Origin: Escherichia phage vB_Eco_Maverick
Direction: 5' to 3' (one strand)
DNA length: 42,624 bases
Sequence record: NC_073077.1
The stretch's first letter is position 1, and the number at the start of each line of letters is the position of its first letter. Positions 2,844 to 42,621 of the stretch are shown here, piece by piece. The translations under genes were made by a program, and so were the position numbers. The notes below the pieces were generated by a model, which saw nothing but the letters and a program-made list of their open reading frames with translations, ran no database searches and was not told the origin of the DNA.

Positions 2844-2850
2844 TAAAATG

Positions 2851-9703: not shown

Positions 9704-9783
9704 GGTATCATCTCCGGTATTGGGTTGAGTTTTAGTATTACACCGCTCAATCAAGAATGCAACCAATTTATGAGGATTCAGCT

Positions 9784-11439: not shown

Positions 11440-11502
11440 TATGTGGTCCTTTTTATGGGAGGCCGTATTGCCTCCCGACGCGTTAACTATAGTGCAACCA
11501 AC

Positions 11503-11973
11503 CTATTGGTTGCAAGTGAATTTTGCAACGTTTATTGCGTAAATTTTCGGGACCAAATCGCTACACGCCCGACGAATTGCCGCGATGTTCTTCTCGCAAT
11601 CTTCAATGATGACCAGTTCCGACACGTCTGCATAGCAGACCATCTTGAACACGGCACACGCTTTAAACTCTGGCGGCGGGGTGTCATCCAGCATGTGGCG
11701 CATAAACAACCGGCCTGTCGGGAATACTTCCAGTTGCTCGGCGGTAGTCTCCCAACATTCGCGCTGCCGGTTAGTCAGATACGCTATCTCGAAGCCTTGC
11801 TCTTTGTACATGCGCAGCAGCGGCAGCATATCCATGTTCAGGTCTTCGCGTACGTGCGCTTTGTGCCACTTTGCCCAAAAGGTTGATTTCGTTTTTATCC
11901 CCGGCACCAGGTCGGCACGCGCATCGCTTGAGCCATTAATAACGCCATCCAAATCGCAAATCAGTAATTTCAT
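11503..11973 (-). CDS. HAD-superfamily phosphatase-like protein
   Basis: N-terminal MKLLICDLDGVI matches HAD motif I (DxDG); downstream Thr and acidic motifs present; 156 aa. Confidence 0.6.
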   Translation of the reverse strand: MKLLICDLDGVINGSSDARADLVPGIKTKSTFWAKWHKAHVREDLNMDMLPLLRMYKEQGFEIAYLTNRQRECWETTAEQLEVFPTGRLFMRHMLDDTPPPEFKACAVFKMVCYADVSELVIIEDCEKNIAAIRRACSDLVPKIYAINVAKFTCNQ

Positions 11974-13111: not shown

Positions 13112-13354
13112 TTATTTAATCTCCGTAGTGCGGATTTCCTTGCGAGGAATAAATTTGCCGTCTTTCTCGACCCAGCAAGTTCCGTAACGCCATTGGGTAT
13201 TACGGCCTGTTTGCTCGGCATATACGGTCTTGCATTCGTAGCGTTCCGTGTAGTAAATAGCCGCGGTAGGTACGAAAATACAAACGGCAAACATGAGGGT
13301 GAGTATCACCCAAAATCGAAGGTCGCCGTCGTAGTCGAAAAATAATGATCTCAT
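13112..13354 (-). CDS. small membrane protein
   Basis: 80 aa with one strongly hydrophobic helix (FWVILTLMFAVCIFVPTAAIYY); GGAG Shine-Dalgarno; own promoter upstream. Confidence 0.5.
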   Translation of the reverse strand: MRSLFFDYDGDLRFWVILTLMFAVCIFVPTAAIYYTERYECKTVYAEQTGRNTQWRYGTCWVEKDGKFIPRKEIRTTEIK

Positions 13355-13370
13355 TGTGTCGTCTCCGGGT

Positions 13371-13398
13371 ATTAAAAAGGGCGTCCAAACCGGACACC
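13371..13398 (-). terminator. minus-strand rho-independent terminator overlapping the downstream promoter
   Basis: On the minus strand gggtgtcc-ggttt-ggacgccc (one G-U pair) followed by ttttt; lies between the -10 box at 13402-13407 and the RBS of gene 13112-13354. Confidence 0.5.
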
Positions 13399-13401
13399 CT
13401 C

Positions 13402-13430
13402 AATATAATGCAACCAATCTAATTATGCAA
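13402..13430 (-). promoter_or_regulatory. sigma70-like promoter TTGCAT-N17-TATATT embedded in tandem ATTGGTTGCAT motifs
   Basis: Minus-strand reading aTTGGTTGCATaattagaTTGGTTGCATTATATT; -35 and -10 hexamers separated by 17 nt. Confidence 0.4.
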
Positions 13431-13435
13431 CCAAT

Positions 13436-13753
13436 TTACGAATAAAAATTTGGGTCGCGTGCAACGTCTACCAGATACAGATTGCTGATTCGGTTGCCGT
13501 AGTGCCCTGGGGTGCGCTGGCGGCACACAACGGCGAAGCCTGGAGGGATTGTATTGCCCGTCGCAATAATCCACGCCACGCGTGCGCCAGACAGCGTCTT
13601 GCCGTTGCATTCGATACGGGTTCCGCCATCGGCGGTGTTGATGTTGCCAATCTTGCATCCGGTGGACTTCAGACGGATGACTCCGGTTTTGCTGTCGTAG
13701 GTGAATAGCTGGTTAGTCATTGCGACCGAAAAATCAATGGCTTCGAATGTCAT
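13436..13753 (-). CDS. hypothetical protein, possibly a degenerate HNH/homing-endonuclease-like DNA-binding protein
   Basis: 105 aa, Gly/Cys-containing beta-rich sequence (GCKIGNINTADGGTRIECNGK...HYGNRISNLYL); weak resemblance only. Confidence 0.35.
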   Translation of the reverse strand: MTFEAIDFSVAMTNQLFTYDSKTGVIRLKSTGCKIGNINTADGGTRIECNGKTLSGARVAWIIATGNTIPPGFAVVCRQRTPGHYGNRISNLYLVDVARDPNFYS

Positions 13754-14445
13754 TTTAAATTTTCCTCGTTAACCGCTATCGCGAAGCCGCGCGGAGTGAG
13801 CGACCGGATTAATTTTGTGCGGGCTGATTTACCACCGAGGCGACTATACTGCTTCGAGTACCCTTTTTCAACGAATACAGGCTTTTTCTCTGGCATACGA
13901 AAGCCGTTGCCGGTCCATAAGCAGGTCCGCTTCGGATATGAATCGCGGGCGTTGATGTATTCCGGGAAGAGCGGGTGTACGTCATCCTCCGGCAGATAGC
14001 CCCCATACTCCCACGGATCAAACGAGTGGTCTGGCTTGCGCCACTGGGAGGAGAGCACACTGCGCGGATTCTCAATCATATATGGCACTTCGAAGAAGTC
14101 ACCCAGGTAAGCGGCGATCTTCGCGGTGCGCACCGCCTTAAGCTGAAAGGCTGGGTCTTTCGCACGCTTGCGCGGGAAAGCTGGCGCGCCGCTCACTGCC
14201 AGATCCGTACACGGAGGGAATGCATAGATGATATCCGGCGTACCGAAATCGCCATTCATCGCGCGGTCCACAAAGTCCATATCTATAAACTCATTGCGAT
14301 ATCGGATTCCGCGACCATAAATCCGGTAGTCAAGGTAAGACCCGTGATCGGCTTCGGAATAGTTGAAGCAATAACACTTATGCCCCATCTCGGCAGCACG
14401 CTCAATCATCAAGCCGCTGCCGTCAAACAATGACCAGATTATCAT
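13750..14445 (-). CDS. DNA cytosine-5 methyltransferase-like protein (short)
   Basis: Motif I-like SLFDGSG, motif IV-like FPPCTDL (catalytic Pro-Cys), motif VI-like MIENP in the canonical order; only 231 aa, so the target-recognition region would be minimal. Confidence 0.55.
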   Translation of the reverse strand: MIIWSLFDGSGLMIERAAEMGHKCYCFNYSEADHGSYLDYRIYGRGIRYRNEFIDMDFVDRAMNGDFGTPDIIYAFPPCTDLAVSGAPAFPRKRAKDPAFQLKAVRTAKIAAYLGDFFEVPYMIENPRSVLSSQWRKPDHSFDPWEYGGYLPEDDVHPLFPEYINARDSYPKRTCLWTGNGFRMPEKKPVFVEKGYSKQYSRLGGKSARTKLIRSLTPRGFAIAVNEENLK

Positions 14446-16306: not shown

Positions 16307-16346
16307 TTCTAAAATCCTCGTTAGTGCTAACCTGCTCACTATACTG

Positions 16347-16625
16347 TTAAGCGACCAATTCAGCAACCAATAAATCACAGTCGGCTATGTTGTCGATGAC
16401 GCGAACGTCCGCACCGCGGCGGGCCATCCGCTCATGTTCTCGTACCTGGTGCGGCTTCGGTTTGCCTCCGGGGCGCTTCACTTCGACGAAAACTATTCTG
16501 CCGTTGATGATGATAATCAGATCGGGAGCACCTGCGCGCCCCTCCCAAGCAACTTTGCGGCAGAATCCGCCGACGGCTTTCACCCGTCTCATCAAGTGAC
16601 TTTGAATCTTGCCTTCTGGTGTCAT
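16347..16625 (-). CDS. VRR-NUC domain nuclease
   Basis: 92-aa product MTPEGKIQSHLMRRVKAVGGFCRKVAWEGRAGAPDLIIIINGRIVFVEVKRPGGK with PD...E-x-K core; ATG overlaps the polymerase stop (TAATG). Confidence 0.7.
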   Translation of the reverse strand: MTPEGKIQSHLMRRVKAVGGFCRKVAWEGRAGAPDLIIIINGRIVFVEVKRPGGKPKPHQVREHERMARRGADVRVIDNIADCDLLVAELVA

Positions 16626-19924: not shown

Positions 19925-20014
19925 TTTCCAATTCCTCATTTTCACATGCATCGGGGTTATTGGAAGCCACCCCGTTCGGCTTGGTTGCCAATTTACTTGG
20001 TTGCGCCTAAGCGG

Positions 20015-20257
20015 TCAAGCATTTTCATTAAAAAGATTTCTGGTAACGTAGTCGGTAGCGTTCTCGATCCAGCTTAATGGCGGGCGGTCGATATTCTTCT
20101 CCACCCAATCGGCGGCAGCGTCGCTATAACCGTCATCCAGCCAGCGGGTCGGATGCCGAATCATCCACGCCACCATTAACACGCCATGCACACAATGCAG
20201 GATAAAGCACAGCGCGCCGATAACAAACATCAATAATATTGCGAATACTTTATTCAT
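20015..20257 (-). CDS. small membrane protein
   Basis: 80 aa with two hydrophobic helices (VFAILLMFVIGALCFILHCVHGVLMVAWMI). Confidence 0.4.
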   Translation of the reverse strand: MNKVFAILLMFVIGALCFILHCVHGVLMVAWMIRHPTRWLDDGYSDAAADWVEKNIDRPPLSWIENATDYVTRNLFNENA

Positions 20258-22812: not shown

Positions 22813-23048
22813 GTATATCTCCGATTGGTTAAGTTTAGGTGTCGGCAGTTAACTTCGTCGGTGGCCTTAACATATTGCCAGGTTGCGCGTTCTCCCGTTC
22901 GGGTAGTGGACCTGGTTATATAATCACGGTTGGGAATCCTGACACTTCGATCCGGCCCCTGCGTTGCCCCTCTCCAGTTTGCGTCCTGCATCCTGTCGAC
23001 GGAGTGAATGATAGATTGGTTGCAGGATGGGTGTCAACAACTAATTTC

Positions 23049-23213: not shown

Positions 23214-23543
23214 ATGAATATCAAAGAAGCAATTGAAGTGTTATCTAATGCAATCCGCGGCGAAGCGGGTAAATCCTGGTATTACACAAATGCGGTGGAT
23301 ACTCTGTTATTTGAAGTGTCCAGATTATCGCGTGCTGAGAAGGAGCTTACCGCGAAGCTGGAATTGCTCAACGGCACGGCAGCAAGCAAGCTGCAAAAAC
23401 ACAATGAAGAAATGGAAGAATACAAAAAGCAGGTTATCCGTTTGCGCAATGAGGGAAAGTCATGGGCAATGATCGCCGAGTTGACCGGAATTAATCAGAG
23501 CACAGTGCGCTCCTGGGTACGCAATAATAAAACTTCAAAGTAA
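23214..23543 (+). CDS. helix-turn-helix DNA-binding protein (putative transcriptional regulator)
   Basis: 109 aa with coiled-coil centre and C-terminal HTH (KSWAMIAELTGINQSTVRSWV); AGGAG Shine-Dalgarno; first gene of the plus-strand block. Confidence 0.55.
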   Translation: MNIKEAIEVLSNAIRGEAGKSWYYTNAVDTLLFEVSRLSRAEKELTAKLELLNGTAASKLQKHNEEMEEYKKQVIRLRNEGKSWAMIAELTGINQSTVRSWVRNNKTSK

Positions 23544-25829: not shown

Positions 25830-25928
25830 ATTGGTTGCCGATATGGGAATTCCCATATCGCTAAACGGTTAATTTGTGCGCGCATTGGTTGCCATTTTGA
25901 GTGTTTTTATCTGGTCGTATTGGTTGCC
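25830..25928 (+). repeat. three direct ATTGGTTGCC repeats flanking a perfect 20-bp palindrome
   Basis: ATTGGTTGCC at 25830, 25884 and 25919; GATATGGGAATTCCCATATC at 25840-25859. Confidence 0.8.
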
Positions 25929-25978
25929 GTGTAGTGTAAATATAATGAATAGTTATGCAGTTTTATTGCATAAAGTAG

Positions 25979-26128: not shown

Positions 26129-26295
26129 GAGACTGAATAAAATCCGGGGATTGCAAAATACACGGCAGCATGATGCGAAGTGCGGTCGTCGATGAACTAG
26201 GCAACCAATGCGGGTTGTATTATGCTGAGTGAAAAATGCAGTTTTCAGCCACAGCTGATATCGATCAACTTTTTCATGCGCGTGATTAATATTGG

Positions 26296-26324
26296 TTGCA
26301 TTCACCCCAGCACCCTGCTATATT
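26296..26324 (+). promoter_or_regulatory. sigma70-like promoter TTGCAT-N17-TATATT inside ATTGGTTGCA motifs
   Basis: TTGCAT 26296-26301, 17-nt spacer, TATATT 26319-26324, about 28 nt upstream of ATG 26353. Confidence 0.4.
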
Positions 26325-26352
26325 GGTTGCACACCAACATGAGGACTGAACA

Positions 26353-28205: not shown

Positions 28206-28223
28206 TTATGCAAGCGTGATATA

Positions 28224-28257
28224 GTCCCAGTGAGCTAAAACTTACTGGGACTTTTTT
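28224..28257 (+). terminator. rho-independent terminator immediately upstream of the holin start
   Basis: gtcccagtgag-ctaaaa-cttactgggac stem (one G-U pair) followed by tttttt, then ATG 28258. Confidence 0.6.
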
Positions 28258-30809: not shown

Positions 30810-30939
30810 CGGCAACCCATAAGCCTCCCAGCCTGCCGATTTGGTGGGCTTTTTTGTGCCTGTTATAATCCCCCTTAGATGGCAGGGCCGTCTCCTATGT
30901 TGCCGATGGTCGGCGCATATGAACAAAAGGGCTTATATC

Positions 30940-36710: not shown

Positions 36711-36734
36711 GCGTCCTCGTTGTTGGTGTGCAAC

Positions 36735-36763
36735 CAATATATGCAACCAATACGCGGATTGCA
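36735..36763 (-). promoter_or_regulatory. sigma70-like promoter TTGCAA-N17-TATATT for the moron gene
   Basis: Palindromic TTGCAA at 36758-36763 and minus-strand TATATT at plus 36735-36740; followed by leader ggttgcacaccaaca shared with the 26353 gene. Confidence 0.4.
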
Positions 36764-41577: not shown

Positions 41578-41607
41578 TTTGGTCGCTTAAATAGCGAGTG
41601 ATAATAT

Positions 41608-41630
41608 GGGGCCAGCACGGCCCCTTTTTT
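41608..41630 (+). terminator. rho-independent terminator after the major tail gene
   Basis: ggggcc-agcac-ggcccc stem followed by tttttt. Confidence 0.75.
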
Positions 41631-42327: not shown

Positions 42328-42621
42328 GCGGGACGTCCCGCTTTGTCCCGCCCTGTAAAACCGCATATCTAATCACTTTCATTGCATAAACTCAAAGCGG
42401 GACAGGCGGGACGTCCCGTTTTGTCCCACCCACGAAATGTGCATACCTATTCGAATTTCGTGCATAAAACAAGCGGGACAGAAAGCGGGACAGACAAGGG
42501 GCGGGACAAAGCGGGACAGCACCCAGTCCCCGCCAGTGCTGCCGCGGTTTTCAGCCGATCGGGACAAGCGGGACAAAGCCCAGTCTTTCAGACTAGACGG
42601 GGGTCAACGGCCCCCCTCGTC
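42328..42621. repeat. iteron cluster: GCGGGACGTCCCGC palindromes, about seven direct GCGGGACA octamers, two TGCATAAA boxes, ending in the same 28-nt hairpin (terminal copy, continues into bases 1-200)
   Basis: Palindrome at 42328-42341 and 42406-42418; GCGGGACA at 42397, 42473, 42485, 42501, 42511, 42568; TGCATAAA at 42383 and 42461; hairpin at 42594-42621. Confidence 0.85.

Follow-up and report, generated by a model that had tools for sequence, protein, structure and literature searches.

How can a transcription terminator stand almost immediately after a promoter without stopping the transcripts of that promoter? This question is raised by a short site on the minus strand of Escherichia phage vB_Eco_Maverick (NC_073077.1), a member of the group Dhillonvirus (HK578-like siphophages of E. 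coli). The whole stretch of 42,624 nucleotides (nt) analyzed here is herein referred to as the window. At positions 13371-13430 of the window, a promoter-like sequence, TTGCAT-N17-TATATT, is followed by a hairpin and a T-run; sequence, strand, and 17-nt spacer are those given in the original prediction for this locus. The evidence presented below tips slightly in favor of two overlapping signals, a terminator for incoming RNA and a promoter that escapes this terminator.

Layout of the site and predicted folding of its transcripts

The site occupies an 82-bp gap between an open reading frame (ORF) of 105 aa that resembles HNH endonucleases and an ORF of 80 aa. The following elements were distinguished in this gap:

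13425-13435, minus strand: box 1, ATTGGTTGCAT, ending in the -35 hexamer TTGCAT (13430-13425)
13408-13418, minus strand: box 2, ATTGGTTGCAT; it fills the promoter spacer up to position -13
13402-13407, minus strand: -10 hexamer TATATT, followed by GA; 5/6 match to the consensus, TATCTT in 5/26 homologues
13395, minus strand: predicted start of transcription at a G that is located 7 nt past the -10 and preceded by T; this G is base 5 of the 5' stem arm
13379-13399, minus strand: putative terminator stem-loop of 8 bp, consisting of GGGTGTCC (13399-13392), the loop GGTTT, and GGACGCCC (13386-13379)
13374-13378, minus strand: T-run T5 (U5 in RNA); T5-T8 in homologues, TTTCT in one of them

The two boxes are separated by 6 freely varying nt (13424-13419), and the spacer between the -35 and the -10 is 17 nt long. 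The position of the -35 inside one of two tandem ATTGGTTGCAT boxes was missed by the original prediction, which had placed the hairpin within 5 nt of the promoter; the measured gap between the end of the -10 and the stem is 2 nt. The stem consists of six G-C/C-G pairs, one U-A pair, and one U·G pair. Folding of the core hairpin gave -14.2 kcal/mol, or -17.6 kcal/mol with two A/G-U extension pairs. The Shine-Dalgarno (SD) sequence GGAGA is located 13 nt after the stem, outside of it, and remains unpaired when the RNA is folded. A U-tract 3' of the stem is present in the minus-strand orientation only; in the plus-strand direction, TCAATATAAT comes after the stem. A standard terminator scan misses this hairpin only because the stem gets extended into the T-run, leaving too few T residues; a custom hairpin finder recovers it. 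Searches against Rfam at both thresholds found no known RNA family at the site.

The sequence TTGCAT-N17-TATATT would be a host sigma-70 promoter belonging to a phage-wide ATTGGTTGCA-box family, the boxes probably binding a regulator. Sigma-70 promoters start transcription approximately 7 nt after the -10, preferring a pyrimidine at -1 and a purine at +1. Initiation would be expected at G13395, within the 5' arm of the stem. Among the 5'-truncated RNAs that were folded, the RNA from G13395 retains only GUCC/GGAC, a stem of 4 bp (-5.4 kcal/mol) that ends 4 nt short of the U-run. Starts at 13394-13391 leave essentially no stem, and the full stem is retained only with starts at 13399-13401. RNA that reads through from upstream folds the full hairpin, with -14 to -17.6 kcal/mol.

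Lacking the first four stem bases, the RNA of the promoter itself would form no terminator-competent hairpin and would reach the downstream genes. For RNA from the promoter-like site at 13871 (see below) and from promoters further right, the stem-loop and U5 would act as an intrinsic terminator, ending the incoming transcripts at least partly and leaving them with a protective 3' hairpin. The promoter's own transcripts would pass and upstream transcripts would terminate because only the read-through RNA holds the full stem. The genes to the left of 13.4 kb would depend on the box-controlled promoter and not on upstream read-through. It had been claimed earlier that the promoter's own RNA starts in the 5' arm and cannot form the hairpin, read-through being terminated; the folding energies fit this claim, and the start site in it is a predicted one. 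The claim that the arrangement provides compact insulation of adjacent transcription units would hold in one direction only. Downstream genes would be shielded from read-through, but the promoter would be exposed to occlusion by upstream transcription, since the terminator lies downstream of it and incoming polymerases first cross the boxes and the promoter.

The interpretation of the site as a terminator-immune nested promoter is plausible and rests on the predicted start at G13395 and on a weak -35. We infer promoter activity, the exact start, terminator efficiency, and the box binder alike. The focal promoter matches the consensus at 8/12 positions, with 3/6 matches between its -35, TTGCAT, and TTGACA (TTG being kept), and a custom scan found approximately 50 comparably loose promoter matches across the window. 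With so many similar matches, the focal promoter alone is not beyond chance. Since sequence alone gives an ordinary 8/12 match, the case for function must rest on comparison.

Conservation of the site and the predicted box-bearing promoters

The comparison was based on an alignment (A1) of 26 distinct homologous spacers from viral contigs, metagenomes, and phage records, together with four further variants. Third-codon positions of the upstream gene were used as the neutral reference (nucleotide diversity, pi = 0.267). Values of pi were 0.014 for box 1 and 0.014 for box 2, 0.054 for the -10, 0.010 and 0.036 for the stem arms, and 0.015 for the T-run. Free variation was found in the six inter-box bases (0.38), in the loop (0.19), and between the SD and the ATG (0.44). 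Relative to the neutral sites, diversity among the 26 distinct homologues is 5-25 times lower in the boxes, the -10, the two arms of the stem, and the T-run. Within the -10, only position -9 varies (A or C), and A-11 and T-7 are invariant, the further variants included. Indels are found in the T-run, the loop, and the spacer between the boxes, but the -10 and the stem are always 2 nt apart. As judged from this alignment, the promoter-like parts and the terminator parts are each under purifying selection.

The stem is paired in 200/200 cells (25 distinct sequences). A compensatory change from C-G to U-A was found in 3 sequences and a change from U-A to U-G in 1 sequence; in phage PEC14, a G-C stem pair is replaced by G·U. 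In plus-strand RNA, the invariant U·G pair and the two wobble changes would become mismatches (C·A or A·C). Because the U·G and the wobble variants pair only in minus-strand RNA, the stem appears to act in the minus-strand transcript. The hairpin is annotated as a terminator in three records, by other groups. The record of Escherichia phage vB_Eco_CS16 displays it as a plus-strand feature, and in the WF5505 record the depositors annotate the same hairpin as a terminator of the gene strand (minus), with -13.6 kcal/mol.

Two of the related genomes carry deletions at the site. In HH3 (L157, 400-440), one box was lost via a 17-nt deletion between direct repeats. In SM_A8 (L155, 440-470), the deletion begins exactly after the 3' end of the stem, and the T-run and the next two genes are gone.

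Boxes of the form (A)TTGGTTGC(A), 8-11 bp long, were found in other parts of the window: besides 13408-13435, they are located at 9757-9767, 11492-11515, 16344-16371, 19981-20004, 23015-23025, 25830-25929, 26291-26332, and 36728-36751. In the window scan, TTGGTTGC was commoner than chance and almost confined to intergenic regions. The boxes form direct pairs (start-to-start distances of 13, 17, and 31 nt), an inverted pair (11.5 kb), and a triplet (25.8 kb). The TTGCNN part is in the position of a -35, with a -10-like hexamer 16-18 nt downstream, at 9762, 13430, and 16366 (minus strand) and at 26296 (plus strand). At 11.5, 13.4, and 36.7 kb, boxes fill the spacer adjoining the -10. Boxes in reverse orientation are located in the spacers of near-consensus promoters at 20018 (TTGACC-17-TAAATT) and 23037 (TTGACA-18-TATCAT). 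A properly spaced -10-like hexamer (16-18 nt) accompanies 7 of the 23 boxes, compared with 3.6% of all TTG trinucleotides (P=1e-5). The box-bearing sites at 9.76, 11.5, 13.4, 16.4, 26.3, and 36.7 kb lie 22-41 nt upstream of start codons, these distances being the predicted 5' untranslated regions (5'UTRs). All box-bearing sites are kept in three diverged genomes (Sloth, WF5505, and Opt212), where the bases between the conserved elements vary.

By these sequence comparisons, the boxes mark a conserved family of at least 7 predicted promoters in this phage. Conservation together with membership in this family indicates a real signal above chance, and the focal TTGCAT-N17-TATATT is likely a real promoter controlled by a box-binding factor. 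Regulation by a factor is more probable here than plain constitutive sigma-70 activity, because the weak -35 of this promoter is part of an 11-bp box found twice here and also at other promoters. The boxes look like an operator more than a simple -35, since they overlap the -35, the spacer, or the -10/+1 region in both direct and inverted pairs; they may be operator sites of a so far undescribed regulon of the phage. Literature searches yielded no description of this motif. The first gene of the rightward early operon (23214-23543, plus strand) encodes a 109-aa protein with a C-terminal HTH_23 / Sigma70_r4_2 domain above the Pfam thresholds, called "Gam-like nuclease inhibitor" or "transposase" in some records. 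As the sole DNA-binding candidate found, this helix-turn-helix (HTH) protein is a speculative candidate for the box binder.

Additional structures were observed next to box-bearing promoters. At 11478-11456 (minus strand), a conserved hairpin GGGAGGC-aatacg-GCCTCCC (of the GGGGC/GCCCC type in relatives) is located approximately 2 nt past the predicted start of the 11.5-kb box promoter and has no T-run. Unlike the focal hairpin, it looks like a stabilizing stem-loop at the RNA 5' end rather than a terminator. At 23141-23008 (minus strand), the sequence TTGAAA-17-TGTAATAAT is followed after approximately 30 nt by a terminator, GCGCCG...CGGCGC-T9, and 12 nt later by the early promoter TTGACA-18-TATCAT. 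The TTGAAA-17-TGTAATAAT promoter would yield only an RNA of approximately 60 nt, possibly a small RNA or a leader, in the divergent early control region.

Alternative explanations and known systems

Several observations weigh against the combination of a terminator with a nested promoter. A consensus promoter scan of the window leaves the focal promoter uncalled, the 3/6 match of the -35 being under the threshold. TATATT may owe some of its conservation to the box-binding factor or to the perfect TATAAT that is read at 13404-13409 of the other strand. On the terminator side, U5 is a modest U-tract and termination may be only partial; the covariation is thin, comprising one compensatory pair that was probably produced by a single evolutionary event. 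HH3, lacking one box, and SM_A8, lacking the T-run and the downstream genes, are both viable, so neither element is essential. The searchable literature contains no mapping of 5' or 3' transcript ends for any Dhillonvirus.

The site could be a terminator without a promoter, an explanation we regard as unlikely. The boxes would bind a repressor or roadblock, or a non-transcriptional protein, TATATT would be kept as a part of this binding site or by chance, and downstream genes would be expressed via partial read-through. The weak -35 and its absence from the consensus calls agree with this explanation, as do the operator-like orientations and positions of the boxes (inverted pairs, and location inside the spacers of strong promoters) and the viability of HH3, the deletion in which removed TTGCAT from the -35 position. 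The pattern of variation in TATATT, however, is that of a -10, with A-11 and T-7 kept and changes at -9 only. The occurrence of box TTGCNN 16-18 nt from a -10-like hexamer is far above chance (the P=1e-5 given above), and box sites keep the stated distance of 22-41 nt to start codons. Moreover, the module is kept before different downstream genes, as would be expected of a promoter cassette.

Another explanation concerns the plus strand and is compatible with the terminator plus nested promoter on the minus strand. TATAAT at 13404-13409 could belong to a divergent or antisense promoter, the RNA of which would be complementary to the HNH-like and dcm genes, with the hairpin remaining a minus-strand terminator. 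This hexamer is a perfect -10, and where homologues have TATCTT on the minus strand, the plus-strand reading is still GATAAT. Symmetric -10 regions are established sites of divergent initiation in bacteria, reportedly by work from the same laboratory as the preprint of Fletcher et al. discussed below. Such a promoter is nevertheless improbable here: the plus strand has neither a -35 nor a TG extension, and no plus-strand gene is located downstream, all genes at 9.5-23 kb being on the minus strand. In addition, the homologue L012 has TATAAG, in which the key T-7 is lost, whereas A-11 and T-7 of the minus strand are invariant throughout.

Initiation from the first stem base or from a position before it, as with a -10 CATTAT (13410-13405) and a start at approximately 13399-13398, would make the hairpin a promoter-proximal attenuator ending the promoter's own RNA after approximately 25 nt unless prevented; an alignment TTGGTT-N18-CATTAT is present, RNA from 13399-13398 still folds (-15.4 to -11.7 kcal/mol), and phage 5'UTR terminators giving short RNAs are documented (PMC10914365), but this explanation is very improbable, as TATATT, in which A-11 and T-7 are conserved, is the better -10, a start at 13399 would follow TATATT at a distance of only 3 nt, the documented 5'UTR terminators yield RNAs of at least 70 nt and not approximately 25 nt, and a conserved promoter making only abortive 25-nt RNAs has no evident use.

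Further candidate readings were rejected. A sigma-54 reading of the box (TGGCAC-N5-TTGCA) has an unsuitable GG-to-GC spacing. Sigma-70-dependent pausing at a -10-like element could aid termination; the U-run here is 24-28 nt from the hexamer and not at a distance of approximately 10-12 nt, which is reportedly the spacing of the lambda PR' pause.

The preferred reading, a terminator for incoming RNA overlapping a promoter that escapes it, can be compared with several known systems. Promoter-coupled terminators are widespread; in this class, termination occurs approximately 10 bp before the start site, the DNA of the stem also provides the -35, and the -10 comes just after the T-tract (bioRxiv 10.64898/2026.08.19.745784). 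The termination site is at most 35 bp upstream of the coupled start, with a mode of approximately 10 bp (Fletcher, Forrest, ... Grainger; bioRxiv 10.64898/2026.08.19.745784). There, as in the focal gap, one short intergenic region contains a terminator that overlaps with the promoter of the tandem gene behind it, which saves space and couples the units. The focal order, however, is reversed, as in a mirror image: both promoter hexamers are upstream of the stem, and the predicted start is within its 5' arm. Predicted termination (13378-13374) is approximately 17-21 nt downstream of the predicted start at 13395 rather than upstream of it. The stem does not serve as a -35 nor the T-tract as the lead-in to a -10, the only hexamer after the T-run being TAATAC, without T-7. 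The published roadblock mechanism is not directly transferable because a polymerase at the focal promoter would sit on the terminator and not just past it. A promoter of the published type placed after the T-run (GTGTCC-N17-TAATAC) was rejected, since it lacks T-7 and its start would land inside the SD.

The published geometry is found elsewhere in the window. At 30831-30869 (plus strand), upstream of the terminase region, the stem GCCTGCC...GGTGGGC and T6 are followed 8 nt later by TATAAT, with a -35 TTGGTG inside the stem at 17-nt spacing. This site is a textbook promoter-coupled terminator by geometry and is kept in three other genomes.

In phage T4, late promoters are located in the 5' strand of an inhibitory hairpin for gene e, I-TevI, soc, segB, and mobE (reviewed in PMC3014915, PMC2988022); for gene e and I-TevI, the start site is inside the 5' strand (PMC3014915, PMC2988022). 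The same logic applies: long upstream RNAs hold both hairpin strands, and a promoter in or next to the 5' strand gives RNAs that escape the hairpin. Homing-endonuclease genes are involved in several of these T4 cases; at the focal site, an HNH-like gene immediately precedes the module. A start within or just after the 5' strand is what the focal geometry predicts, on the basis of a predicted start site. The T4 hairpin blocks translation, whereas at the focal site the SD is outside the stem, a U-run follows, and the promoter is of the sigma-70 type, so that termination of transcription would be expected.

Terminators in phage 5'UTRs are transcribed in whole from their promoter and give short RNAs of approximately 70-250 nt (Putzeys et al., PMC10914365). 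They resemble the focal hairpin in lying closely downstream of a promoter in the genome of a virulent phage. The focal stem, by contrast, begins at approximately -4 relative to the predicted start, and the promoter's own RNA should not hold the complete terminator.

Fold-back inhibition in IS10/IS50 is also based on transcript origin: outside transcripts include both arms of the inverted repeat, the element's own promoter starts between the arms, and only native transcripts are active. The effect in these insertion sequences is on translation of the transposase, while the effect proposed here is on termination in a phage operon. By analogy, the logic of the focal site is one known from T4 late promoters, and its predicted geometry is a variant of known promoter-terminator overlaps.

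If the start lies inside the stem, the site would be a natural terminator that tells transcripts apart by their origin, stopping incoming polymerases and being invisible to the promoter 2 nt upstream. It would be a counterpart, in opposite order, to the terminator-then-promoter coupling described recently and would extend the classical T4 principle from translational to transcriptional control. Engineered phages or operons could use it as a very compact part of approximately 60 bp by which transcription is reset between genes. It would also help to define the transcription program of Dhillonviruses, including the ATTGGTTGCA-box regulon; these are common coliphages in therapy and in studies of defense systems.

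Genome setting and similar sites elsewhere in the window

A 5-kb part of the window was tested and had 100% identity to Escherichia phage vB_Eco_CS16; 158 related phage records match the same 5-kb query. All genes at approximately 9.5-23 kb are on the minus strand and form a leftward early/middle block for replication and DNA modification (DNA polymerase I, helicase, Dcm-like and Dam-like methylases). Features next to the focal module are the following:

13436-13753, minus strand: upstream gene, the 105-aa HNH-endonuclease-like ORF (PHROG 99, HNH endonuclease, E=7e-16)
13112-13366, minus strand: SD GGAGA (13366-13362) and the downstream 80-aa ORF (ATG at 13354), a small predicted membrane protein (PHROG 18961, unknown function)
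13843-13871, minus strand: TTGAAA-N17-TATAGT, a promoter-like sequence internal to the dcm-like gene; with 10/12 matching positions, the best sigma-70 match in the region

The 105-aa ORF had no hit in a Pfam search and is labelled HNH endonuclease in many related records. Its stop codon TAA (13438-13436) directly adjoins box 1, and it is translationally coupled to the dcm-like gene (13750-14445). The gene after the module varies among Dhillonviruses, the products starting with MKSLFFDYD..., MKILQEEK..., or MSKNEQ.... In view of these differing downstream genes and of the deletions in SM_A8 and HH3, the focal module sits at a mosaic (recombination) junction beside a homing-endonuclease-like gene. 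The site at 13843-13871 is within a stretch of approximately 38 nt that is nearly invariant in 14 homologues, with variation at the flanking synonymous sites. This site probably serves the HNH-like gene as an internal promoter and is a probable nearby source of the transcripts predicted to end at the focal hairpin.

Three sites in the late region have extended -10-like elements that abut or overlap the 5' base of strong terminators. These elements are TGATAATAT within 41579-41630, TGATATAGT within 28217-28257, and TGATAAAAT within 2841-2878, all on the plus strand and with the geometry of the focal site; the first follows the gene for the major tail protein, the second precedes the holin region, and the third follows the tape-measure gene. 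Their hexamers are of the TGnTAnnnT type:

41602-41607, plus strand: TAATAT, directly before GGGGCC...T6, after the major tail gene
28220-28225, plus strand: TATAGT, overlapping the terminator stem
approximately 2845-2850, plus strand: TAAAAT

The recurrence of this arrangement was assessed by counting -10-like hexamers that end between 2 nt inside and 6 nt before the stem, with the expectation taken from shuffles of the flanks. Among curated terminators, the arrangement was found in 5/16 under strict rules (2.0 expected, P ~0.03) and in 9/16 under relaxed rules (3.9 expected, P ~0.004); among automatically called terminators in the window, it was found in 5/19 (1.9 expected). There was no enrichment in 1.09 Mb of unrelated viral contigs (13/114 vs 19.7 expected), which indicates that the test has no general bias. 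These background contigs came from a promoter-anchored pattern scan of viral contigs, which gave almost only chance matches and was useless for finding homologues. The difference between the window and the background contigs has a Fisher P = 0.09 in a post hoc test with small numbers. The -10/terminator sites at 22.16 and 10.28 kb are not conserved in the other genomes compared. The occurrence of -10 elements abutting terminators is thereby a suggestive lead, and not a result, for a recurring rule in this phage.

A broader proposal would be that Dhillonviruses repeatedly use terminator-immune nested promoters mirroring promoter-coupled terminators. A -10, sometimes with the TGn extension, would be placed at the 5' base of a stem, and transcription would be reset under the control of the factor of the ATTGGTTGCA boxes, for which the HTH protein encoded at 23214-23543 is a possible candidate. 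We consider this proposal doubtful. The candidate sites, with initiation inside the stem, would be 13.4 kb (minus strand) and 41.6, 28.2, and 2.85 kb (plus strand). If such a class exists, a polymerase released at the U-run might re-engage the promoter only approximately 25 bp behind it.

The coordinates of the window are no simple rotation of the record LR999870.1. A hairpin of 21 nt with its flanks (GGCCGTTGACCCCC GTCTAGTCTGAAAGACTGGGC TTTGTCCC) is found near both ends of the window, at 81-101 and at 42578-42598 (minus strand). This duplication suggests a terminal repeat or a circularly permuted assembly.

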